Notes: generated by a model not told the origin, from the letters alone. DNA of 64,000 nt from Squalus acanthias (GCA_030390025.1 CM059432.1:54438001-54502000), one strand, 5' to 3'; positions 1 to 57,410 are shown, counted from the first letter of the stretch. Made by a program: numbers and translations.

Positions 1-382
1 CCTGACCACCCGACTGAGGTGGATCTGCCATGAGCACACCTGCTTCAGTCCTCCGGCTCCTTCTCCTTGTTGTGCTTCTCCTCGCTGAGGCAGCTGCACA
101 GCCAGCAATGTTGGGAATGAGGTGCTGCAGCATCAATGAACCTTCCCTTTAAGTACTGGGAAAAGCCTGTGGCAATGAAGAGTTGCGATTAGACTGCACC
201 CAATATTGGTCCACTTGTGTAACACCACTGAGCTAGGCCTTTAAGACTTGATTTAGCACTCCTATCATTTCTTTGAACAGTGAGAATGAATTTTGCGTGC
301 AGTCTAAAGCAGCACCTGGCACTAATTCTCAAACTTTTCTAAAGATACCACCCATTCCTTGGCTATAATAAATTTCTAGCCC
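1..382. mobile_element. Right end of a degraded Harbinger-derived element (runs off window start)
   Basis: Ends in AAATTTCTAGCCC, matching the GGGC..AAATT terminal motif of other Harbinger derivatives here; internal CCTTTAAG motif as in their subterminal regions. Confidence 0.35.
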
Positions 383-639
383 GCAGAGTTCTCGGAGGGT
401 TGTAGGGCTCGAGAAGGATACAGAGATAGGAAGGGGCAAGGCCACATCCTCCAATGTCAGGGAGCCAGACTCAAGGCTAACACCAGGTTCTTTTGGACGC
501 TACTAAAATGGCCGACCTTTGGTCACACAGAAAAAACCTCATCTGCATGGCTGCCATTGTCTTGCACCTGTTGCTTTCAACAACTGCTAAACTGCAATTT
601 TCTTTCACAAATATTTCATTTAAAGTTGAGTAGAATTAA

Positions 640-1298
640 AGGCCTTTAGCCCAGAGGCGCATTCCATGCGGAGGGGATGTTTTGAGGTCGGGAAACCCGG
701 AAGAAAGAGTTTCCCAAACGTCTCATCTTTAAAAAAATTTCTGTCGGTTTCCCACCCACAGACAGCCTGATGGACCGGATGGTGGTCGGGGTGGCAGATG
801 GTGGTCTGGGGGAGCAAATGGTGGTCGGGAGGGGTCCAATGGTGGCGGAGGGGCAAATGGTGGTCGGGAGGGGTCCAATGGTGGCGGGGGGGGCAGACAG
901 ATCACGGAGGGCGGGGAGGATTACTGGGGAACTTGTTGGGCCTGGAGGAAACACTCCTGCTCCTCCTGGCCCACAAGCAGTTCCGTAAAGGCACTTATAT
1001 CATGTATTCAACCCTTCTCACCTCCTTTCAGCTGCCGGGTTTTCCGAGGCCTCTGAAACCCGGCCGCCAGTGGCTAAAAATAGAATCACTGTTAAAATTA
1101 AGCCATGCAGCATCATTAAAATATTTAAATTACCAACCTACCTCCTTCGAGTAGATTGGTCACCCCCCCTTGACCCACCTCCGGTAAAACTGGAAGTGGG
1201 CAGGTTTGAGGTGGTTTGGATTCCTGTTTCAGATTGTTTGAATTTTAACCTCTTACCCAACCTCAACCCACCCGTTTGTGGGAGTTAAGATTCAGCCC
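640..1298. mobile_element. Harbinger-type non-autonomous element (MITE-like), left boundary uncertain
   Basis: Right terminus AAGATTCAGCCC; G-rich 39-bp tandem unit at ~815-892; CTCCTGCTCCTCCTGGCCCACAAG..CACTTA motif shared with elements at ~15275 and ~54208. Confidence 0.5.
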
Positions 1299-1848
1299 AA
1301 AGTGTAGGCATGCTGTGTGATTTCAGTTTTCAATCCATGAACAATATGTCAATTTTCCATATTGTCTTAGGTTTTTGAATACACAGCCTCACTTCTATAT
1401 TTGTTTTATAAAGAGGGATGCCAGTAAGAAGTTCTTTGTTGCTTACTCAAGGTGAAGTTGAAAAGAATGAAAACAACTCTGACAATACATTGTATTACTT
1501 CAATCTTTAACAATGACGACTCGTCCTTCTTCTCACCACCTCGTCATAGCTGCAATGTCAGCTATTGTAAGGATCTCTTTTATTAACACGGGCAAAGATT
1601 GGTGCAGAGAGACAGTTTCAAAAATACTTGCTGATGGCCTTCACAGTCCATCTTCAAATTCCATTACCAAACCATTACCTTCTACAAATCACTTATTGAA
1701 ACCCACACAAAGTTTTCATAAGTTTCATGAAATTTTAAACAATAAAATATGTGGGAGAACTTTAGAAGCATCAAGAGTTCTGTCTGTCATTGTCTCCTCT
1801 CCCTCAGTACGTACAGACTCCATCACATATTACATGATGCAGTTGATG

Positions 1849-3533
1849 TGTAAGGGGTGACACGCCTGTGGCTCTGTGCTTAGCCTGGGTGCTAGTGCGA
1901 GGTTAGGCCTTGTTGCCTGTTCTGGTCTCCAGCCAGCCTGGTAACACTAGACCCCTGTGAGTGGTTCGACCCACTCGCCCTTACGGTTCTGACACTGGAC
2001 TTAGGTGCGAGAGCAATAATGCAGAGAAAACTCAGGTAGACCCGGTTGAATAGTGCGAAATGGAAAATCTTTATTGCATATTATTCAAGATTACGAAATA
2101 CATGTCATAAGCACAGATTAATGACAGTACAATCTTACACGCAGTTATGTAACTAATTTTAGGGAAACGAGGAGCGCACGACACATCGTAAAAGGGGGCA
2201 CACATTACAATTATCCTTAAAACTTAAACCCTCCCCTATCAATACCTGTCCTAAACTAGATTTGTAGGATCGAGACTCATGCTCACCACTCGTGATAACT
2301 CGGAGAATTCCGAAACTCTGCTCGGATGTTTTTACCGCAGCACCTGACCACCCACGTGTTGATCAGGGGTCTCTGTACCCCACTTGTTTACTCGCTTTTG
2401 CTCCGGCTAGCAGGCTGGACCGTCTGCTGTCATGAAGATCTGTGTTGTCCTCGGAGTTCCGACACTACTCAAAAAATAGTCTTCCTGTGCCCTCGCACCG
2501 ATGCGATAAAACTCGAAGAATGGTCTTCCTGTGCCCTCACCAGTTTGTAAAACTCAAAGAATGGTCTTCCTGGGCAAGGAAAGTGTTTATTCGACCTACA
2601 GGCGCGGTCGGGGCTTACTGACCGTGGCGATACGTATTGTCGTCTTCTTCTCATCTCATCTCATCTCATCTCATCTCATCTCGGGCCTTCGGTTCCAGCA
2701 CCGTTTACCGACTTCTCGGGATGGTGTGCCCGTTTCAAGGCTTCACAGCCCAGTTCCACACAGATCTTCGCGGCAAGCCACGAGGTTGATCCTGGCGGAT
2801 CAGAAATTTCAATAGTCTTCCAGCAAGTCAAACAGCAAGAGGCAGAGACAGCAGTCAAGAGTCAAGAGAAAGATGGACGGTTGTACCTTACAGTTATAGT
2901 GCTGTAATTCCTCTTTTCCCGCCCAATCTTAATGTCTTTCTTTTGTCAGGGTTTTGGCGCTCAAACTTCTTGTATAGGGTGATCTCCGTTTTTAATGGGT
3001 TTCGGTGATACTTGTAACTGCCTGAGTACCCGTTAATACTTCTCCCATTGTGGAACCGGTCAGTATTCTCCCTGGAGGGCTTTTGGGGCTTCCAAATGTT
3101 TTCTGTAACTACCCGCAAACGGCTCTCTCATCGTAGAGTCGTGGGGATTTTGCATATTAATGTCTTTGGATGGGTTCTTGATCGCTCGGTACAATAGCCC
3201 TTATTCGCACCTGGGAGACCGATTCCAGTATTTATGTGTAAAATGCAAACCCATTATGTCTTGTGAATTATCTCAAATGTGCTGAGTCTTGTCCGATCTC
3301 GCACAAATGTTTATTGGAACGCCATCTTGTCTGCTCATTGAAAAGTCTAGAATGTTCTGCCACGAGGCGTGGCGGCCATTTTACAGGCTGCTTGTGTCCA
3401 CTTTGAAAACCTGACAGCATTCTGCTGAAATAAAGCTGTTTGTACAAAACTATATGTCTCCTTCTTATTTTATAAAATCGCGATAATTTTGCGAATTCTA
3501 CAGATGACAAAGGCAGAATTTAATAAATTCACA
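1849..3533 (-). mobile_element. Solo LTR-like element (~1.7 kb)
   Basis: TG...CA termini (minus strand TGTGAATT...CCCCTTACA), minus-strand TATA-like at ~2895 and AATAAA at ~2070-2075, 3' motif shared with the TSD-flanked LTR at 8308-9413; no clear TSD. Confidence 0.6.
2649..2682. repeat. (TCTCA)n microsatellite
   Basis: Direct reading. Confidence 0.95.
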
Positions 3534-33991: not shown

Positions 33992-36900
33992 TGAGGTTGC
34001 GGGTTTGGGAAGTGCTATCGAAGAAGCCTTGGCGAATTACTGCAGTGCATCTTGCAGATGGTACATTGCAGCCACAGTGCACCAGTGGTGAATGGAGTGA
34101 ATGTTTAAGGTGGTGGATGAGGTGCCAATCAAGTGGGCTGCTTTGCCGTGGATGGTGTTGAGCTTCTTGAGTGTTGTTGGAGCTGCACTCATCCTGGCAA
34201 GTGGAGAGTATTCCATTACGCTCCTGACATATGCATTGTAGATGGTGGAAAGGCTTTGAGGAGTCAGGAGGTGAGACACTTGTCGCAGAATACACAGCTT
34301 CTGACCTCCTCTTGTAGCCACATTATTTATATGGCTGGTCCAGTTAAGTTTCTGGTCAATGGTGACACCTAGGATGTTGATGGTGGAGGATTTGGCAAAG
34401 GTAATCCCATTGAATATCAAGGAGAGGTGGCTAGACTCTCTCTTGTTGGAGATACTCATTGCCTGGTACTTGTGTGACACAAATGTTACTTGCCACTTAT
34501 TAGCCCAAGCTTGAAAGTTCTGCAGGTCTTGCTGCATGCGGGCACAGACTGCTTCATTATCTGAGGAGTTGTGAATTGAACTGAACACTGTGCAATCAAA
34601 AGCGAATATCCTCACTTCTGACCTTATGATGGAGGGAAGGTCATTGATGAAGCAGCTGAAGATGGTTGGGCATAGGACACTGCTTGAGGAACTCCTGCAG
34701 CAATGTCCTGGGGCTGTGATGATTGACCTTCAACCACCACAACCATCTTCCTTTGTGCTAGGTATGACTCCAGCCAGTGGAGACTTTTCCCCCTGATTCC
34801 CATTGACTTCAATTTTACTAGGACTCCTTGATGCCACACTCAGTCAAATGTTGCCTTGATGTCAAGGACAGTCACTCTGGCCTCACGCCTGGAATTCAGC
34901 TCTTTTGTCTATGTTTGGACTAAGGCTGTGATGAGGTCTGGAGCCAAGTGGTCCTGGCAGAACCCAAACGGAGCATTGCTGAGCAGGTTATTGGTGAATA
35001 AGTGCCACTTGATAGCACTGTCGACGACACCTTCCATCACTTTGCTGATGATTGAGAGTAGACTGATGGGGCAGTAATTGGCTGGATTGGATTTGTCCTT
35101 CTTTTTGTAGACAGGACATACCTGGGCAATTTTACACATTGTCAGATAGATGCCAATGTTGTAGCTGTACTGGAACAGCTTGGCTAGAGGTGCGGCTAGT
35201 TCTGGAGCACATGTCTTCAGCACGATAGCTGGGATGTTTTCGGGGCCCATAGCCTTTGCTGTATCCAGTGTGCTCAGCCGTTTCTTGATATCACGTGGAG
35301 TGAATCAAATTGGCTGAAGTCTGGCTTCTGTGATGGTGGGGACCTCAGGAGGAGGAGGAGGAGGAGGAGGAGGAGGCCAAGATGGATCATCCACTCGGCA
35401 CTTCTGGCTGAAGATGGTTGCAAACGCTTCAGCCTTGTCTTTTGCACTCAGGTGCTGGGTTCCGTCATCATTGAGGATGGGGATCTTCATGGAGCCTCCT
35501 CCTCCCATCAGTTGTTTAATTGTCCACCACCATTTATGAATGGATGTGGCAGAAATGCAGAGCTTTGATCTGATCCATTGGTTGAGGGATGATTTCGATC
35601 TATTTATAGTATGCTGCTCTGTTGTTTATCTATAGTAGTTCTGTGTTGTAGCTTCACCAGGTTGGCACCTCATTTTTAGGTACACCTGGTGCTGCTCCCT
35701 TCTACACTCCTCATTGAACCAGGGTTGGTCCACGGGCTTGTTGGTAATGGTAGCATGAAGGATATGCTGGGCCATGCATTTACAGATTGTGGTGGAATAC
35801 AATTCTGCTGCTACTGATGGCCCACAACGCATCATGGGTGCCCAGTTCTGAGCTGCTAAATCTGTTCTGAATCTATACCATTGAGCACAGTGGTAGTGCC
35901 ACACAGCACGATAGAGGGTGTCTTCAGGACTTAGTCGCCATAAGGACTGTGCGGTGGTCACTACTACCAATAATGTCATGGGCAGATGCATCTGCAACAG
36001 GTAGATTGGTGAGGACAAGGTCAAGTAGGTTTTTACGTCATTTTGGTTCTCTCATCACCTGTCGCAGGCCCAGACTGGCAGCCATGTCCTTCAGGACGCG
36101 GCCAGCTCACTCAATACTGGTGCTACCAAGCCACTCTTGGTGATGGACATTGATGTCCCCCACCCAGAGTAGATTATGTGCCCTTGCTACCCTCAGTGCG
36201 TCCTCCAAGTGGTGTTCAACATGGAGAAGTGCTGATTCATCAGCTGAAGATGAGCGGTAGGTGGTAATCAGCAGGAGGTTTCCTTGCCCATATTTGATCT
36301 GATACCAGGAGATTTCATGGGGTCCGAAGTGAATGTTGAGGACTCTCAGGGCCATTCCCACCTGACTGTATACAACTGTGCCACCACCGGTGGGACAGGA
36401 CATACCAGGGATGGTGATGGATGAATCTAGGGCATTGGCTAAAATTTATGATTATGTGAGTATGTCTATGTCAGGCTGTTGCTTGACTAGTCTGTGGGAC
36501 AGCTCTCCCAATTTTGGCACAAGACCCCAAATGTTAATGAGGAGGACTTTGCAGGGTCAACTGGGCTGGGTGTGCCTTTGTTGTGTCTGAATCAGGTGTC
36601 TCGATCAATGCCGGGTGATCTGTCCAGTTTTATACTTATTACTGTTTTTCATAGCAGTTTATTACAACTCATTGGCTTGTTAGGCCATTTCAGAAGGCAG
36701 TTAAGAGTCAACCACATTGCTCTGGGTCTGCAGTCAAATGTAGGCCAGACCGGGTAAGGGTGACAGCTTTCCTTCCCAACAGGATATTAATGAACCAGTT
36801 GGGTTTTTACAGCAATCGGGTAGTTTCATGGTCACCATTACTGATACTAGCTTTTTATTCCAGATTTATTTAATTAAATGAATTTAAATTTCACAGCTGC

Positions 36901-38512
36901 CGTAGTAAGATTTGAACTCATGTCTCTGGATTACTAGTCATAAGAATATAAGAACATAAGAAATAGGAGCAGGAGTAGGCCATTCGGCCCTTCGAGCCTG
37001 CTCCGCCATTCAATGAGATCATGGCTGATCTTCTGCCTCAACTCCATTCACCGGCCCTATCGCCATATCCCTTGATGCCCTTACTAGTCAGAAATCTATC
37101 GACTTCTGTTTTGAATATACCCAATGACTGAGCCTCCACAGCCCTCTGGGGTAGAGAATTCCAAAGATTCACCACCCTCTGTGTGAAGAAATTTCTTCTC
37201 ATCTCAGTCCTGAATGGCCTACCCTTTATCTTGAGGCTGTGGCCCCTGGTTCTAGTCTCCCCAGCTAAGGGAAACATTTTCCCAGCATCCATCCTATCAA
37301 GCCCTGTAATAATTTTATATGCTTCAATGAGATCCCCTCTCATTCTTCTGAATTCAAGAGAATACAGGCCTAGTTTACTCAATCTCTTCTCATACGACAG
37401 TCCCGCCATCCCAGGAATCAATCTTGTGAACCTTCTTTGCACTCCCTCTATGGCAAGTATATCCTTCCTTAGGTAAGGAGACCAAAATTGTACACAGTAC
37501 TCCAGGTGTGGTCTCACCAAGGCCCTATATAATTGGAGTAAGACTTCTTTACTCCTGTACTCAAATCCTCTTGTAATGAAGGCCAGCATACCATTTGCCT
37601 TCCTAATGGCTTGCTGCACCTGCACATTCACTTTCAGTGACTCATGTACAAAGACACCCAGGTTCCTTTGAGCATCTGCATTCCCCAATCTTTCACCATT
37701 TAGGAAATACTCTGCCTTTCTGTATTTTCTACCAAAGTGGATAACTTTACATTTATCCACATTATATTCCATCTGCCATGTTCTCGCCCACTCACTGAGC
37801 CTGTCGAGATCCCCTTGAAGCCTCTTCGCAACTGACACTGCCACCTAGCTTTGTATCATCAGCAAATTTGGAAATGTTACATTTAGTCCCCTCATCCAAA
37901 TCATTGATATAGATTGTGAATAGCTGGGGCCCAAGCACCGATCCTTGCGGTAACCCACTAGTCACAGCCTGCCATCCTGGAAAAGACCCGTTTATCCCTA
38001 CTCTTTGTTTTCTGTCTGTTAACCAATTCTCAATCTATGCTATTACCCCCAATTCCATGTGCCCTAATTTTGTTCACCAACCTCTTGTGTGGGACCTTAT
38101 CGAAGGCCTTCTGAAAATCCAGATACGCCACATCTACCGGTTCCCCTTTGTCTACTCCACTAGTTACATCCTCAAAGAACTCCGATAGGTTTGTCAAACA
38201 GGATTTCCCTTTCATAAATCCATGTTGACTCTGCCTAATCTTACTATTAATTTCTAAGTGCCCAGTTATTGCATCCTTTATAATAGATTCCAGCATTTTC
38301 CCAACTACTGATGTGAGGCTAACAGGTCTGTAGTTCCCCATCTTCTCTCTCCCTCCTTTCTTAAATAGCGAGGTTACATTTGCTATCCTCCAATCTGCAG
38401 GAACCGTTCCAGAATCTATAGAATTTTGGAAGATGACAACCAATGCGTCCACTATTCCAATGGCCACCTCTTTCAAAAGGTTGCCATTGGATTACTAGTC
38501 CAGTAACATAAC
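33992..38512 (-). mobile_element. CR1 family B LINE with tRNA/Meta-like head (36670-36938 + 38489-38512), APE and RT; 3' end lost; head split by CR1 family A
   Basis: Colinear reverse complement of 44228-47200; GDINVHHQEWL, NYCPISLLS; (GGA)n expansion at 35348-35376. Confidence 0.92.
36940..38478 (-). mobile_element. 5'-truncated CR1 family A LINE
   Basis: ORFs 38030-38476 and 37038-37844 with RT motifs; (TTCTTAT)n tail. Confidence 0.95.
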
Positions 38513-44227: not shown

Positions 44228-47200
44228 GTGGTAATGTCACTGGGCTAGTAATGTCCAGAGGCCTGGACTAATAATCCAGAGACGTGAGTTCAAATCCCAC
44301 CATGGCAGCTGGGGAATTTAAATTCAGTTAATTAAATAAATCTGGAATGAAAAGCTAGTATTAGTAATGGTAACCATGAAACTATCGGATTGTCGTAAAA
44401 ACCCATCTGGTTCACTTTAGGGAAGGAAATCTGCTGTCTTTACCCGGTCTGGCCTATATGTGACTCCAGACCCACAGCAACGTGGTTGACTCTTAACTGC
44501 CCTCTGAAATGGCCTAGCAAGCCACTCACTTGTAAAAAAAACTGCGACAAAACACAATAATAAAAATGAAACTGGACGGACCACCTGGCATCGAACTCAG
44601 CACCGGCTACAGACACGGCAACGGTGCACCCAGCCCAGTCGACCCGGCAAAGTCCTCCTCACCAACATCTGGGGAATTGTGCCAAAATTGGGAGAGCTGT
44701 CCCACAGACTAGTCAAGCAACAACCTGACATAGTCATACTCACAGAATCATACCTTTCAGCCAATGTCCCAAACTTCTCCATCACCATCCCTGGGGATAT
44801 CCTGTTCCACCAGCAGGACAGACACAATGGTATACAGTCGGGAAGGAGTGGCCCTGGGAGTCCTCAACATTGACTCTGGACCCCATGAAGTCTCATGGCT
44901 TCAAGTCAAGCATGGTTAAGGAAACCTCCTGCTGATTACCACCTACCGCCCTCCCTCAGCTGATGAATCAGTACTCCTCCATGTTGAACACTACTTGGAA
45001 GAAGCACTGAGAGTAGCAAGGGCACAGAATGTACTCTGGGTAGGGGACTTCAATGTCCATCACCAAGAGTGGCTCGGTAGCACCACTAGTGACCGAGCTG
45101 GCTGAGTCCTGAAGGACCTAACTGCCAGTCTGGGCCTACAACAGGTGGTGAGAGAACCAACACGAGGGAAAAACCTACTTGACCTCGTCCTCACCAATCT
45201 ACTTGTCGCAATTGCATCTGTCCATGACAGCATTGGTAGCAGTGACCACCGCACAGTCATTGTGGAGACGAAGTCCCATCTTCACACTGAGGACACCCTC
45301 CATCGTGTTGTGTGGCACTACCATTGTGCTAAATGGGATAGATTCAGAACATATCTAGCAGCTCGAAACTGGGCATGCATGAGGCGCTATGGGCCATCAG
45401 CAGCAGCAGAATTGTATTCCACCACAATCTGTAACCTCATGGCCCGGCATATCCCTCACTCTACCATTACCATCAAGCCAGGGGACCAACACTGGTTCAA
45501 ATAAGGAGTGTAGAAGAGCATGCCAGGAGCAGCACCAGGCGTACCTAAAAATGCGGTGCCAACCTGGGGAAGCTGCAACACAGGACTACATGCATGCTAA
45601 AAAGCGGAAGCAGCAAGCTATAGACAGAGCTATGTGATCCCACAATCAACGGATCAGATCAAAGCTCTGCAGTCCTGCCACATCCAGTCATGAATGGTGG
45701 TGGACCATTAAACAACTAATGGGAGGAGGAAGCTCCATGAATATCCCCATCCTCAATGATGGTGGAGCTCAGCACATGAGTGCAAAAGACAAGGCTGAAG
45801 CGTTTGCAACCATCTTCAGCCAGAAGTGCCGAGTGGATGATCCATATCGGCCTCCTCCTGAGGTCCCCACCATCACAGAAGCCAGTCTTCAACCAATTCG
45901 ATTCACTCCACGTGATATAAAGAAATGGCTGAGCGCACTGGATACAGCAACGGCTATGGGTCCTGACAACATCCCGGCTATCGTGCTGAAGACTTGTGCT
46001 CCAGAACTAGCTGCGCCTCTAGCCAAGCTGCTCCAGTACAGCTACAACACTAGCCTCTATCCGACAATGTGGAAAACTGCCCAGGTATGTCCTGTCCACA
46101 AAAAGCAGGACAAATCCAATCGGCCAATTACCGCCCCATCAGCCTACTCTCAATCATCAGCAAAGTGATGGAAGGTGTCATCAACAGTCCTTTCAAGTGG
46201 CACGTACTCACCAATAACCTGCTCACTGATGCCCAGTTTGGGTTCCGCCAAGACCACTCGTCTCCCGACTTCATTACAGCCTTGGTCCAAACATGGACAA
46301 AGGAGCTGAATTCCAGAGGTGGTGAGAGTAACTGCATTTGACATTAAGGCAGCATTTGACCGAGTGTGGCATCAAGGAGTCCTAGTAAAACTGAAGTCAA
46401 TGGGAATCGGGGGGAAAACGCTCCACTAGCTGGAGTCATACCTAGCACAAAGGAAGATGGTTGTGGTGGTTGAAGGTCAATCATCACAGCCCCAGGACAT
46501 CACTGCAGGAGTTCCTCAGGGCAGTGTCCTAGGCCCAACCATCTTCAGCTGCTTCATCAATGACCTTCCCTCCAACATAAGGTCAGAAATGGGGATGTTC
46601 GCTGATGACTGCACAGTGTTCAGTGCCATTCACAACTCCTCAGATAATGAAGCAGTCCAAGCCCGCATGAAACAAGACCTGGACGACATTCAGGATGGGC
46701 TGATAAGTGGCAGGTAACATTCGCGCCACAGAAGTGCCAGGCAATGACTATCTCCAACAAGCGAGAATATAACCACCGCCCCTTGACATTCAACGTCATT
46801 ACCATCGCCGAATCCCCCATCATCAATATCCTGGGGGTCACCATTGACCAGAAACTTAACTGGACCAGCCACATAAATACTGTGGCAACAAGAGCAGGTC
46901 AGAGGCTAGGTATTCTGCAGCAAGTGTCTCACCTCCTGACTCCCCAAAGCCTTTCCACCATCTACAAGGCACAAGTAAAGAGTGTGATGGAATACTCTCC
47001 ACTTGCCTGGATGAGTGCAGCTCCAACAACACTCAAGAAGCTCGACACCATCCAGGACAAAGCAGCCCACTTGATTGGCACCCCATCCACCACCTTAAAC
47101 ATTCACCCCCTCCACCACCGGTGTACCGTGGCTGCAGTGTGTACCATCTACAAGATGCACTGCAGCAACTCGCCAAGGCTTCTTCGGCAGCACCTCCCAA

Positions 47201-47502
47201 CCTGCGACTTCTTCCACCTAGAAGGACAAGGGCAGCAGGCGCATGGGAACGCTACCACCTCCAAGTTCCCCTCCAAGTCACACACCATCCTGACTTAGAA
47301 CTATATCGTCGATCCTTCATTGTCGCTGGGTCAAAATCCTGGAACTCCCTCCCTAACAGCACTGTGGGAGTACCTTCACCACACGGGCTGCAGCGGTTCA
47401 AGAACGCAGCTCACCACCACCTTCTCGAGGGCAATTAGGGATGGGCAATAAATGCTGGGCTTGCCAGCGACGCCCACATCCCATAAACAAATTAAAAAAA
47501 AA
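44228..47502 (+). mobile_element. Essentially full-length CR1 family B LINE: tRNA-derived head, Meta-like body, single APE-RT ORF, short hairpin 3' UTR and A-tail
   Basis: B-box GTTCAAATCC 44288-44297; body 44401-44528; ORF remnants 44649-47438; tail GGGATGGGC..GCCCACATCCC + A-run. Confidence 0.93.
44649..47438 (+). pseudogene. APE endonuclease + reverse transcriptase ORF of family B LINE, multiple frameshifts/stops
   Basis: [63 protein letters not shown]. Confidence 0.93.
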
Positions 47503-49851: not shown

Positions 49852-52087
49852 AATGTCATGTATGTAGATTTTCAAAAGATGTTTGATAAGGTGTCGCATA
49901 GAAGGGTTGCTAATAAAATTAAAAGGAACGTGGCAGCCTGGACAGGAAGTTGGTTAATGAGGGGTCGCTTTTCAATTCTGGCATACAATGGGCAGCCAAT
50001 GGGCGGGGCATCCACTCCATCCACCTACCTGCCCAATGACGTCGGCGGGAGGCCCGATCACTTTTCATGATCAGGTCTCATTTAAATACAGGAGACAAGC
50101 TGTCAACGCTAATCACGCTGCTTATAGGCTGCTCACTGTTTGGAACGAAATCGGGTAGGCCTGGTTCTGGATGTCTTCCAGGGAGCTTCCGTAACATATC
50201 GAAGATGGTGGAGGAGTCCACTACCAACTTCTGAGCAAAGCACTGACGCTCTGCAACCAACCATGGAGCATGTGGTCACCTCAGTGGACACTGCTGCTGG
50301 GCCCTCCTTGCAGGAGTAGGTGGCCCCAGTAGTAGCATCTCAGGGATGTTCATACTGGGACCATGCAGGATCTGGGCTGCACCATCTCCTTCCCCCTTGG
50401 ATAGGCTAGGGCACGGCTGGATTATGGCTACTGTCACATCGCAGATCTCCTCGCATATCAGTGCGAGAGCATTGAGCCACATCCCGATAGCAGGGGCAGT
50501 CATGCAAAGGGTGTGGACCATGTTGCCCTCTCTCAGGATGGCAGCACATCCACAACCTCGCAAATCCCCCTCAACCAATGCCCACACTGGTGCCAGAAAG
50601 ACAGCTGGGCCTGACCGCCCTGGCAGCCATGGAGATGCTGCAGTCAGCAGCCAGGCCCTCTCACACCCATTCCTAGATATCACGTGCCACAAGCAACTCA
50701 CGAGCCCTTGACTGAGCCACAGTGGGTAAAATTACAGAAGATCAGTGGGAGATGTTCAAAAAAGAATTTAACGTGATACAGAACTAGTTTATACTCCTGA
50801 GGGGCAAGAGCTCTACTTGCCAAAAAAACCAGCCATGGACAACTAAAGAGGTAAGGGACAGCATAAAACTAAAAGAAAAAGCATACAAAAATGCAAAAAA
50901 TAGCACAGATCCTGGCAAATGGGAAAAATACAAAGAGCAGCAAAGGGTCTCAAAACAGAGCGTAAGAGCTACAAAAAGGGACTATGAAAAGAAACTTGCA
51001 AGGGATATCAAAATCAATACCACAAATTTTTACAATTACATTAGGAAAAAGAGCGTAGTCAGGAGCAATGTTGGCCCCTTAAAAATCAAAAGCGGTGATA
51101 TTGTTAATGACAATAAGGAAATGGTGGACATGTTGAATAATTACTTTGCATCAGTATTTACAGTAGAAGAACAGGATAGAATGCCAGAAATCCCAAGGAA
51201 ACTAATATTGAATCGGGGACAGGGACTCATTAAAATTAAAGAAAGTAATGAAGAAAATAATGGCACTAAAGAGTGGCAAATCCCCAGGACCAGATGGTTT
51301 CCATCCCAGGGATTTAAAGGAAGTAGGTGAGCACATTGCAGATGCCCTAATTATAATCTTCCAAAGTTCTCTCGATTCAGGAACCATTCCTTTAGATTGG
51401 AAAATTGGGTATGTCACTCCGCTATTTAAGAATGGCGAGAGAGGGAAAGCAGGGAATTATAGACCAGTTAGCCTAACATCTGTTGTCGGGAAATTGCTAG
51501 TCTATAGTTAAGGATAGGGTGACTGAACACCTTGAACATTTTCAGTTGATCAGAGAGAGCCAGCATGGATTTGTGAAAGGTAGGTCATGCCTGACAAACC
51601 TGATTGAATTTTTTGAAGAGGTGACTAAAGTAGTAGACAGGGGAATGTCTATGGATGTTAGTTATATGGACTTTCAGAAGGCATTTGATAAAGTCCCACA
51701 TAAGAGACTATTAACTACGGTAGAAGCCTACGGAGTTGAGGGAAAATTATTGACCTGGTTAGGAAATTGGCTGAGCGCAGGAGAAAGAGAATAGGGGTAA
51801 TGTGTAGGTACTCAAATTGGCAGGATGTGACTAGTGGTGTTCCGTAGGGATCTCTGTTGAGGCCTCAACAATTCACAGTATTTATTAACGTCTTAGATGA
51901 TGGCATAGAAAGTCATATATCCAAATTTGCCGATTCACAAAGATAGGTGGCATTGTAGGCAGTATAGATGAAAGCATAAAATTACAAAGAGATATTTCTA
52001 GATTAAGTGAATGAGCAAAACTGTGGCAAATGGATTTCAATCTAAGCAAATGTGAGGTCATCCACTTTGGACCTAAACAGGATAGAA

Positions 52088-52517
52088 AAACATAGAAACA
52101 TAGAATCTAGGAGCAGGAGTAGGCCATTCGGCCCATCGAGCCTGCTCCGCCATTCAATACGATCATGGCTGATCATCCAAATCCAGTACCCTGTCCCTGC
52201 CTTAATCCCCACAGTACACACATCCCACCCTACCCCCATAACCCCACGTATTTAATTCCCCCTAACATATCCCATCCTATCCCCATAACCCCACATATTT
52301 AATTCCCCCTAACACTAAGGGTCAATTTATCATAGCCAAATCAACCTAACCCACACATTTTTGGACTGTGGGAGGAAACCGGAGCACCCGGAGGAAACCC
52401 ACGCAGACACGGGGAGAATGTGCAAACTCCACACAGACAGTCACCCGAGATCAGATTCGAACCCGGGTCTCTGGCGCTGTGAGGCACCAGTGCTAACCAC
52501 TATGCCACCGTGTTGCC
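52088..52517 (-). mobile_element. HE1-type V-SINE
   Basis: tRNA head with A/B boxes, V-domain TGCGTGGGTTTCCTCCGGGTGCTCCGGTTTCCTCCCACA, CR1 family A 3' tail. Confidence 0.93.
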
Positions 52518-53122
52518 AGAACAGGGTGCTTTCTAAATGGTGAAAAGCTAAAAACAGTGGAGGTCCAAAGAGACTTGGGGGTCCAGATACATTGATCATT
52601 AAAATGTCATGAACAGGTACAGAAAATAATCAAAAAGGCTAATGGAATGCTGGCCTTTATATCTAGAGGACTAGAATACAAGGGGGTAGAAGTTATGCTG
52701 CAGCTATACAAAACCCTGGTTAGACCACAGCTGGAGTACTGCGAGCAGTTCTGGGCACCACACTTCAGGAAGGATATATTGGCCTTGGAGGGAATACAGC
52801 ATAGGTTTACCAGAATGATACCCGGACTTCAAGGGTTAAGTTACGAGGAGAGATTACACAAATTAGAGTTATATTCTCTAGAATTTAGAAGGTTAAGGGG
52901 TGAGCTCATTGAAGTTTTCAAGATATTAAGGGGAACTGATAGAGTAGTTAGAGAGAAACTATTTTCGCTGGTTGGGGATTCTAGGACTAAAAATTAGAGC
53001 CAGACCTTTCCGGAGTGAAATTAGGAAACACTTCTACACACAAAGGGTGGTAGAAGTTTGGAACTCTCTTCTGCAAATGACAATTGATGCTCGATTAATT
53101 GTTAATTTTAAATCTGAGATTG

Positions 53123-53557
53123 GGCAACACGGTGGCATAGTGGTTAGCACTGGTGTCTCACAGCGCCAGGGACCCGGGTTCGAATCTGACCTCGGGTGAC
53201 TGTCTGTGTGGAGTTTGCACATTCTCCCCGTGTCTGCGTGGGTTTCCTCCGGGTGCTCCGGTTTCCTCCCACAGTCCAAAAATTTGCGGGTTAGGTTGAT
53301 TTGGCTATGATAAATTGACCCTTAGTGTTAGGGGGGGATTAAATATGTGGGGTTATGGGGATAGGATGGGATATGTTAGGGGGAATTAAATACGTGGGGT
53401 TACGGGGGTAGGGTGGGATATGTGTACTGTGGGGATTAAAGCAGGGACAGGGTACTGGATTTGGATGATCAGCCATGATCGTATTGAATGGTGGAGCAGG
53501 CTCGACGGGCCGAATGGCCTACTCCTGCTCCTAGATTCTATGTTTCCATGTTTCTAT
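53123..53557 (+). mobile_element. HE1-type V-SINE
   Basis: GGTGGCATAGTGG A-box, GGTTCGAATC B-box, V-domain, CR1 tail, TSD GATTG. Confidence 0.95.
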
Positions 53558-53878
53558 GATTGATAGTTTTTTGTTAACCAAATGTATTGAGGGATATGGG
53601 CCAAAGGCAGGTATATGGAGTTAGGTCGCAAATCAGCCATGATCTCATTGAATGGCGAAACAGGCTCAAGGGGCTCAATGGCCTACTCCTGTTCCTATGT
53701 TCCTAGAAGCCTTCCACCTCCTATCCTGAAGCCACTGAGGGACTATATCATATGAATAGTACAGTACGTAAGAGATCAGTTAAGCCAAGGCACTATGGGC
53801 TCACACTGGGTGATTATTGTGGAATTTGTGGGTTTGTAGGCATTTGTGTAAACCAGTAAGAATATAAAGCAATTTGAA

Positions 53879-54563
53879 ATTCCAATTTTAACTCAGGGCA
53901 AGAGTGTGGCGTGGAGCGACAAGCTCGCAGGGTTGCGCCAGCGGGAGGCCCAAGTCATTTTAACTGTCGGGCCTCATTTAAATTTTTTATTCATACTCCT
54001 GCCAGAACCCAGTGTGCATAATGAGATGGTCAGCAGGCAGGAGCAGGAAATTGCACAGCAGCAGGCCAACACCAGGAACTCAAGGAAATAGTCCCCGGCA
54101 CAACTGAGTGATAAGGGTGGGGGGGGTCTGAGGTGACCATGGTCCCATGAAAGGGAAGGGAAGCCTGGACCGGGGAGTACAAGGGTTCCTGTAGGACGGG
54201 AGGAACAGTCCTGCTCTTCCTGGCCTGCAAGGCATCCTTCAAAAAATTAAAAATATTTGCTTACCTCCGCCTCTTCTGTCCCTGGGTCCAGGTCGGGGCA
54301 GAATCCCCAGGAGCAGTCGGCACTGTGTGCGACTCACACAGCCCAGTGTTAAAATAGTGTCAGGGTCTGAATCACATCGCCGCACCCCAACTTTTAAATA
54401 TTCATATATGCTTACAGCAAGGGCCTCACACGCTTCCCGAAGAACAGGAGTTAAAATAGCAGCTGGCAGGAGTGCAGTGTCCAAGGGGACGTAAGTAATC
54501 TGTCTATATTTTAACCCCCACATGCCCTGTTCTCACCGGGCACAGAGGGGTTAAAATTGGGGC
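53879..54563. mobile_element. MITE-like element
   Basis: TIRs CCAATTTTAAC / GTTAAAATTGG; shared CCTGCTCTTCCTGGC..CTTAC motif. Confidence 0.65.
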
Positions 54564-54735
54564 TTTTGTGTGCAGAGTGTTCCTGTCGTATCTATTGATC
54601 CTGAAATTTCACGTGACATGTATCTCAATGCCAGTCTTTTGGCAGTAGTAGGTTATTGCAGGGTAGAAGGACTGGGAGAGACATTAGACGGTTAATGCGG
54701 GGGGGGGGGGGGTGGGGGGTGGGGGCAGGGATTGT

Positions 54736-56010
54736 TCAACTGAAGCACTCTTCAATGAGCCGTTGCTGAAGAGCTCTGGCTGCAGGCTGGTGTTGGTGCC
54801 CTCCTGCTTCTTTGCCATCTGTGTTGTCTTCATCGTCTGGTTGAAGATCATCATCCAATGGTAACTCCGTGTTGTCCCTGTTGCAGAGCAATGTTATGCA
54901 GCATACAGCCAACCATGTTGATACGGGACACTCTGGGCTATATAGGAGGAAGCCACCAGACCTGTCCAGGAGCACTCGATGATATGCTCGATGAGGGCTC
55001 TGGTTGACCCATGGATCTGACTTTAGCACAGTTTGGCCAGTGAGCGTGGGCCTCTGAGTTGAGTCATGAGCCAAGTGTGCAAGGATAGCCCTTGTCCCCA
55101 AGCAGCCAACCTCTCAATTAGGGTTGGGATGGAGGATTGGTGCAAGGTAAAGCTCTCATGTCAGATACCAAGTAAGTGGGCACAGACCTGCATGATGTGC
55201 TGCTGGTGATCACACACCAGTTGCACATTAATAGAATGGAAGGTATTGGGATTCATGAAGGCAGCAGGCTCATCTGCAGGAGCCCGCATGGTGATTTGCA
55301 CATTCTCCCCGTGTCTGCGTGGGTTTCCTCCGGGTGCTCCGGTTTCCTCCCACAGTCCAAAAATGTGTGGGTTAGGTTGATTTGGCTATGATAAATTGAC
55401 CCTTAGTGTTAGGGGGGATTAAATATGTGGGGTTATGGGGATAGGATGGGATATGTTAGGGGGAATTAAATATGTGGGGTTACGCGGGTAGGGTGGGATA
55501 TGTGTACTGTGGGGATTAAAGCAGGGACAGGGTACTGGATTTGGATGATCAGCCATGATCGTATTGAATGGCGGAGCAGGCTCGATGGGCCGAATGGCCT
55601 ACTCCTGCTCCTAGATTCTATGTTTCTATGTTTCTATGTGATGTGGGTGCAGTCAATGACACCCTAGACTCGGGGGAAGCCTGTAATCTGCGTGAATCCC
55701 ACAGCCCTATCCTGCTGTTTCTGATTGTCCATGGGGAACATGATGTAATTGTTTGCTTTAACAAACAAAGCATTTGTCATCTGCTTAATACAAGCATTAA
55801 CTAATATTGCCTGTTGCAGCCTGCAAGGAGTTGGGGGCCTAGAAGTTGAGGGCCGTAGTGACCTTGACTGCAACAGGCAACACAGTGCCAGCTGTGGCAA
55901 TTGGTTGCCGCTCTTGTTGTAGGAGGCAACCTAGTTCTTTGACAGCCTCTCTGAAGAAGCGCAGCCTCCTTATGCACTACTCCTCTGAGAATTGCAGGTA
56001 TGTGAAGGTT
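54736..56010 (-). pseudogene. Harbinger (HARBI1-like) DDE transposase, near full length but disrupted
   Basis: YLQFSEE*CIRRLRF, GVIDCTHI, FHSINVQLVCD, WLLGDKGYP, TRALIEH, LDRSGG.L.YSP; split by a SINE just after the first catalytic Asp motif. Confidence 0.92.
55296..55637 (+). mobile_element. 5'-truncated HE1-type V-SINE
   Basis: Near-identical to 53213-53557; TSD GTGAT. Confidence 0.93.
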
Positions 56011-57056: not shown

Positions 57057-57410
57057 GGGGTATGGCAACATAGTGGTTATGTTACTGGGTTAGTAATCCA
57101 GAGGCCTGGACTAATGATCTGGAAATATGAGTTCAAATCTTGCCATTTTAAATTCAGTTAAATAAATCTGGAATTAAAAAGCCTAGTGTCTGTAACAGTA
57201 ACCATGAAACTACCAGATTGTCAGAAAAACCCACCAGGTTCACTAATGCCCTTTAATTTTCACCTACCCTAAAATTACCCAGTCTGACCTATGTGTGACT
57301 CCAGGCACAGCAATGTGGTTGACTCTGAAATGGCCTAGCAAGCCACTCTGTTGGATCAAACCGATATAAAAAAGCCAAGTTTTCTTTGATAGCACCTCCC
57401 AAACCCACCT
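57057..57410 (+). mobile_element. tRNA/Meta-like head of family B joined to a short piece of its 3' ORF region (SINE-like derivative)
   Basis: Colinear with 44228-44535, then TTCTTTGATAGCACCTCCCAAACC matching ~47180-47202. Confidence 0.8.

Follow-up and report, generated by a model that had tools for sequence, protein, structure and literature searches.

Long interspersed elements (LINEs) are taken to be units of RNA polymerase II (Pol II), and the RNAs of RNA polymerase III (Pol III) are taken to be non-coding. LINEs headed by a tRNA-like sequence are known mainly from the Ingi clade, as stated in an earlier note on the DNA treated here. The closest described system is the Zenon family, in which the absence of ORF1 is a general trait and headless members also end in poly-A (PMC13343379). 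The stretch analysed (the window) comprises 64,000 nt of Squalus acanthias DNA (GCA_030390025.1 CM059432.1:54438001-54502000), and the copy under study lies at nt 44228–47502. A family consensus of about 3310 nt was derived from 23 copies; SquAca_Zenon-1, catalogued in 2026, measures 3314 nt, and its first 400 nt as given in the supplement agree with the consensus, by eye, almost letter for letter (PMC13343379). On sequence grounds the element is classed as a Zenon (CR1 group) LINE of sharks and rays; its protein relatives are almost all unnamed. From 5′ to 3′ the family consists of a tRNA-like head, an AT-rich linker, a body, an open reading frame (ORF) of 973 codons, a hairpin with AATAAA, and an A-tail. 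The ~3.3-kb unit described in the earlier note, with a tRNA-like head bearing a B box, body motifs, one endonuclease-reverse transcriptase (APE-RT) frame, a hairpin tail and no room for ORF1, was thus confirmed. Its further suggestion of an under-described system holds for the head, which is unremarked in the catalogue, but not for the family, which is entered there as SquAca_Zenon-1 with ORF1 loss common to all Zenon. The text of PMC13343379 contains no occurrence of the words tRNA, promoter, polymerase, translation or start codon. What is catalogued is the family and its ORF1 loss; what was not found in print is a conserved Pol III head, a purge of Pol III terminators, an AUG-less start, and the shedding of short interspersed elements (SINEs). 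No description of a tRNA-headed Zenon was found in the literature, and annotation may exist in Dfam, Repbase, SINEBase or subscription papers.

The tRNA-derived head with its A and B boxes is the fixed 5′ end of the family and not a peculiarity of the copy at 44228–47502. Among the best 30 matches to the head alone (self included), 29 continued into the ORF and one was a head+tail deletion, while the best 30 matches to the start of the endonuclease region had the head in place in 21 cases, most of the head in one, the head displaced by an insertion in two and a 5′ truncation in six, both sets of 30 being biased to young copies. The six truncated copies shared no common same-strand leader abutting the break, and an alternative 5′ untranslated region (UTR) or ORF1 was not seen among the copies examined. 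Start points were sharply placed: of 151 distinct heads with unrelated flanks, 93 began within +1 to +3 and 121 no later than +12; the columns upstream of them were unconserved except for the last three. The head is therefore integral to the family, as the earlier note had it. The CarCar, HypSab, RhiTyp and ScyCan Zenon-1 entries also open, by eye, with an A/B-box head followed by the same body, and in two hagfish entries and one coelacanth entry no head was visible within the first 400 nt (PMC13343379 supplement). ARAGORN predicted no tRNA anywhere in the window. An older SINE is one possible first source of the head.

Pol III terminators, defined as T4 or longer or TVTTT (PMC8466645), have been purged from the sense strand. 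None is present in the consensus, versus 7.05 expected under a base shuffle (P 0.0007), 3.5 under a synonymous-codon shuffle (P 0.01) and 5.0 under a third-position redraw (P 0.0003); the antisense strand carries 21. The depletion of T-runs that had been put forward as a sign of Pol III was thus borne out. With T4 runs alone, none was found versus 3.9 expected (P 0.02); T3 runs were likewise depleted (5 versus 11.3 expected, P 0.005), and runs of A4, C4 and G4 were not. A CR1 consensus of the same genome had 6 terminators versus 7.4 expected, that is, no depletion, and decayed copies of Zenon (209 pieces) contained 0.45 terminators per kb where 2.7 were expected, those of CR1 (45 pieces) 6.1 per kb where 4.5 were expected. 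Forty-nine metagenome relatives with frames of at least 600 codons held 1636 terminators versus 1385–1616 expected, none of them having zero. No pair of A and B boxes was observed upstream of 80 related metagenome LINE loci, which stand in for the DNA around the closest protein relatives (39–46% identity) and are more distant than those; relaxed ARAGORN matches there were scattered and were treated as noise.

The consensus ORF has 973 open codons from +330, the longest other frame of the 5′ region having 76, and Pfam domains PF14529/PF03372 (APE) and PF00078 (RVT_1) were matched on sister copies. The first in-frame Met of the consensus is codon 286, beyond the endonuclease, and a scan from +1 meets 8 upstream or out-of-frame AUGs and no in-frame AUG before the endonuclease. 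Of 135 copies in which the spacing is standard, 117 have the frame closed by a TAA three codons upstream of a conserved in-frame GCT. In the five shark and ray consensuses of the PMC13343379 supplement, the frame reads, by eye, Ala-Thr/Lys-Lys from this GCT with later changes synonymous; ahead of it, one species has a stop and another a 1-nt gap, although gaps in a consensus can be artefacts. Many protein relatives open with Met followed by a basic stretch of comparable length ahead of the endonuclease, and the ~120-bp spacer of the earlier note, present as a region, is thus for the most part the basic N-terminal coding part of the ORF opening at 44538. Protein-level selection has acted on the ORF: 36 of 60 shared non-CpG variants were synonymous, which indicates that master copies made protein. 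Indels that preserve the frame made up 59 of 123 in the N-terminal stretch, compared with 63 of 424 for the leader and 266 of 968 for the ORF; the N-terminal excess is given little weight because 3- and 6-nt repeats there could slip. Use of the out-of-frame ATG at +358 with a -1 frameshift was rejected, since no slippery heptamer was seen before the endonuclease and this ATG reads ATA in 35 of 112 copies.

An older subfamily, with 176 matches, has a single anticodon arm and a different linker but the same body and tail; its body is 90% identical to the young body across 157 nt. The anticodon position reads AGC in the older head and AGT in the young one. Its copies are mostly short, but in at least 2 of 30 the sequence continues into the ORF (67–73% identity), so that the union of head and ORF is old. 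Head, body and tail of the older subfamily may resemble those of AmnSINE2, in which case head and body would predate the shark lineage. Separately, several older-subfamily copies may be conserved non-coding elements.

Zenon repeatedly sheds tRNA-headed short elements by internal deletion, several of which have been amplified and in which the body is kept, as the earlier note had proposed when it named the LINE a possible parent of head+tail SINEs. A pattern joining the body end to the tail within 30 nt gave 432 matches and its control none; among 100 matches listed, 26 shared one junction by eye and the remainder varied. The first 60 body-motif matches on contig C1 comprised 29 short head+tail elements (23 by script, 6 by reading the rows), 30 copies running into the ORF and one unresolved, and the first 70 B-box matches, in which the body was not presupposed, included 32 short elements. 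In these 32, the left breakpoint coincided with the end of the last body hairpin or lay beyond it in 26 (two read from degraded rows), fell inside the hairpin in 6 and came earlier in none, a count that leaves out 21 of the 70 B-box loci (12 ‘after gap/insertion’ and 9 ‘other’); right breakpoints were scattered across 3141–3263. A similar body-to-tail junction was found in contigs of three other organisms, with 52–157 records per listed place.

The last hairpin of the body has a 7-nt loop of anticodon-loop form, with an AGC complementary to the in-frame GCT about 20 nt downstream. Its 15-nt core matches the anticodon arm of the old head at 14 of 15 letters in the old body (0 of 1000 shuffles) and at 13 of 15 in the young body (5 of 1000). 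Across copies the loop AGC hardly varies, the most frequent variant of the stem still forms a G-U pair, and changes of the GCT are mainly CpG decay; a fourth possible pair between loop and GCT varies freely, and no compensatory change was seen. By analogy, an uncapped Pol III RNA might be translated from an internal ribosome entry site (IRES) built from tRNA, a copy of the anticodon arm pairing with GCT to set the AUG-less start, which we consider rather unlikely. Four points weigh against it. The Rfam scan of the 5′ region gave no IRES (E up to 10) or ribozyme match; the 453-nt 5′ region folded no better than shuffles (z -1.3); in a hand-built structure of the body, old-versus-young changes fell on 6 of 72 paired and 10 of 85 unpaired positions (P 0.6), one pair being compensatory, three broken and one lost to a gap; and the ACG behind the GCT in this family could by itself begin translation. 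Were the IRES reading true, the ribosome-binding body would be what the derived SINEs keep, giving a function to a SINE central domain, and SINEs would be born complete from the LINE by one deletion, possibly before the split of sharks and bony vertebrates.

At the 3′ end, 78 of 87 tails have an A-run of at least 4 a short way past the hairpin, and the T-run ahead of the A-tail measures 0–1 in 41, 2–3 in 17 and 4–6 in 20, with 9 unclassified. This pattern is that reported in PMC8466645 for ageing T+ SINEs and is no proof of Pol III. Target-site duplications of at least 7 nt occurred in 2 of 22 copies versus 4% by chance, and none was established.

From these features we infer that the internal A and B boxes direct Pol III through the entire element, that its RNA is translated without cap or AUG, and that the single protein copies its own RNA, an account we hold to be reasonably probable. 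In such a cycle, the full 3.3-kb element would be transcribed from its internal promoter, a step that the sequence makes fairly likely; the uncapped RNA would recruit ribosomes through the body, with a start near the Ala-Thr-Lys codons; and AATAAA with a short T-run would let the RNA be polyadenylated in the manner of T+ SINEs. The protein would then bind the 3′ hairpin and copy the RNA by target-primed reverse transcription, which is established for the clade; internal deletion of the LINE yields the head+tail SINE-like elements. Loss of ORF1, common to all Zenon, preceded the head, and on this account it would have let the element afford a change of polymerase; in the L1/Alu system, Pol III transcripts need no ORF1p (PMC2666806).

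The element may instead be a Pol II LINE whose 5′ UTR was acquired from a SINE head, now a passenger or a Pol II promoter, the avoidance of T-runs being compositional or driven by splice and cleavage signals; we find this doubtful, yet it is the alternative that deserves most weight. Almost all LINEs are established Pol II units, the tRNA-like sequence of RTE-1_DAn was noted without a Pol III claim (PMC5786205), and an AATAAA 45 nt from the end followed by poly-A fits Pol II cleavage, headless Zenon being poly-A tailed likewise. Several further points count against Pol III. Depletion of T4 alone is non-significant under the codon-aware shuffle (0 versus 1.8, P 0.13), the sense strand is poor in T (20%), and avoidance of U-runs could have other causes, such as splice or cleavage signals; the headless controls are distant (24–41% identity), mostly T-richer and not established as Zenon. 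The head scores 24.4 bits (E 0.0097) with the Rfam tRNA model, below the gathering score of 29, and its A–B box spacing is stretched by duplication of the anticodon arm. The consensus 3′ end is without a terminator, having a single T ahead of the A-tail; 20 of 87 tails show T4 or longer, and elongation of T-runs takes place at the level of DNA. However, the purge of both terminator types taken together reaches significance under three nulls and is seen neither in CR1 nor in the 49 relatives, five species retain the two boxes as well as the start point, and a capped, scanning RNA would meet the 8 upstream or out-of-frame AUGs with no in-frame one before the endonuclease. We judge improbable a split of labour in which the Pol III RNA is copied and the protein is made from less frequent Pol II read-through transcripts or from a near-cognate start (ACG/AAG), no IRES being involved. 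Among the 142 copies in which the GCT was located, 73 have ACG as the next codon and most of the others fit CpG decay; this ACG could act as an ordinary near-cognate start, and neither an Rfam IRES match nor covariation support was obtained. But the codon reads ACA or AAA in the other four species (by eye, PMC13343379 supplement), and selection on the frame implies that the copied RNA gains from its own protein.

The origin offered in the earlier note, in which the head and body of a MetaSINE (SlmI-like) were fused to an RSg-1-type LINE, is largely refuted and appears highly improbable. MetaSINE heads are described as closest to tRNA-Thr (PMC4824008), in keeping with the AGT of the young head, and Zenon tails are reported to partner bivalve Meta SINEs (PMC11481361). 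However, the supposed Meta-like domain did not hold, the body being by eye unlike the Meta domains given for BivaMeta-SINE1 and BivaMD-SINE1 (PMC4824008); the element matches Zenon, and the older subfamily has AGC, not AGT. Kinship with SlmI and RSg-1 is likewise unsupported: SlmI and RSg are absent from the examined text of the MetaSINE paper, which does not list SlmI as a MetaSINE (PMC4824008), and SlmI is entered as tRNA-Leu-derived with RSg-1 as its pair (PMC3747384). MetaSINEs are, moreover, short and non-coding, and the present element is 3.3 kb and coding. Among the material compared from PMC3747384, PMC11481361 and PMC5499810, no shark SINE matched the element, and no relative of it was found among the viral contigs searched. 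A coding 3.3-kb element in which a tRNA promoter persists throughout sharks and rays, Pol III terminators are purged and the AUG is gone provides a natural test of translation of Pol III RNA and of its retrotransposition in cis. The element also suggests a simple route to the birth of a SINE, in which a single deletion leaves head, body and tail, and a concrete function, open to test, for the SINE body.

Features of the Zenon copies in the 64,000-nt window (coordinates counted from its first nucleotide)
Feature	Position (nt)	Strand	Basis or remark
Decayed near-full-length tRNA-headed Zenon LINE	44228–47502	+	95.3% identity to consensus positions 16–3303
tRNA-derived head, duplicated anticodon arm	44228–44308	+	Rfam RF00005 at 44247–44308; A box at consensus +9
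B box	44288–44297	+	Read from sequence; family B box at +74
Conserved body, ~160 nt	44380–44533	+	No Rfam family matched
Last hairpin of body, 7-nt loop 44514–44520, AGC at anticodon position	44504–44529	+	Resembles the head's anticodon loop
In-frame Ala codon, candidate start region of AUG-less ORF	44544–44546	+	GCT in family, GCG in the 44228–47502 copy
Single ORF encoding a basic N-terminal part, APE endonuclease (from ~44650) and reverse transcriptase	44538–47438	+	Broken in this copy
3′ hairpin, AATAAA (47447–47452) within internal loop	47438–47482	+	Computed fold
Tail, TT then A8	47493–47502	+	Sequence
Second Zenon copy, consensus 52–3024	33993–36939	-	Consensus alignment, 87.7%; 3′ end missing (last ~280 nt)
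5′ piece of second copy's head	38480–38512	-	Separated by CR1 insertion
Older head+body, without ORF or recognisable tail	57058–57366	+	Consensus alignment, 75.5%

Aligned with the family consensus, the ORF of the 44228–47502 copy is broken by 6 stops and by frameshifts, and loss of the first 15 nt of the consensus has removed most of its A box. The same layout had been reported for 33992–38512; a second copy does lie there, but on the minus strand, without its 3′ ~280 nt and with its head split by a 1.5-kb CR1 insertion (36940–38478), on either side of which 13 nt are repeated. Within the ORF of that copy, a (GGA)n microsatellite at 35349–35378 has expanded, giving an in-frame poly-proline run. 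Three CR1 3′ ends in the window (52088–52517, 53123–53553 and 55295–55633) share 97–98% mutual identity, two being inverted relative to the first; this group (52086–55638) reflects either a recent local duplication and inversion or very young insertions.

The 3.3-kb family is abundant, with tens of thousands of copies in the host genome (3.7 Gb). An exact 15-mer of the tail gave 87,188 matches and one of the body end 11,269, counts that are lower bounds, the copies being decayed; a B-box-anchored 20-mer pattern gave 9,424 exact matches genome-wide and its control none. On contig C10, at 61.35–61.37 Mb, at least 4 near-identical units lie a few kb apart, each with a short head+tail element and fragments of Zenon ORF, and form a tandem array made from Zenon pieces. 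One head occurs in three copies with identical flanks on C1 at 7.00, 7.07 and 7.14 Mb, the ~70-kb spacing marking a tandem segmental duplication. A different tRNA-headed SINE was found inserted within Zenon copies at two loci. The CR1-type LINE pieces that adjoin Zenon copies at two loci, and which served as controls, retain open frames of 769 (+) and 766 (-) codons; CR1 activity in this genome is thus more recent than that of Zenon.

Compared with known systems, the element shares its single ORF, lack of ORF1 and poly-A tail with the elasmobranch Zenon entries (SquAca_Zenon-1/2/3 and CarCar, HypSab, RhiTyp and ScyCan Zenon-1), but no mention is made there of its head, its purge of terminators, its AUG-less start or its SINE derivatives (PMC13343379). 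Lepidopteran Zenon likewise gives rise to internally deleted elements that join 5′ and 3′ ends, of which the SIDE Persaeus is an example; as described in PMC6740152, Persaeus is without tRNA homology or a Pol III promoter, whereas the deletion product in sharks is at once a tRNA-headed SINE. Bipartite SINEs whose bodies were traced to LINE 5′ ends, and a LINE mentioned with a tRNA-like sequence (RTE-1_DAn), are also comparable, but only RTE and Vingi supply bodies in that survey, the tRNA head being added later (PMC5786205), whereas in the present case all three parts, head, body and tail, belong to the CR1-group LINE itself. T+ SINEs such as B2, Dip and Ves resemble the element in their A and B boxes, terminal AATAAA and T-runs that lengthen at the expense of a short A-tail; they are, however, short and non-coding with masters that are described as bearing a full terminator, in place of the single T of the Zenon consensus (PMC8466645). 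An IRES of the intergenic region (IGR) type was speculated in PMC3894237 to occur in non-LTR elements, which would force a rethinking of ORF2. The element shares with the dicistrovirus IGR IRES a non-AUG start next to a hairpin whose loop could mimic the anticodon–codon pair (pseudoknot I, PKI), and in Zenon ~190 nt of conserved RNA precede the frame; no equivalent of PKII or PKIII was identified and covariation gives no support, and the likeness is thus one of analogy and not of membership.

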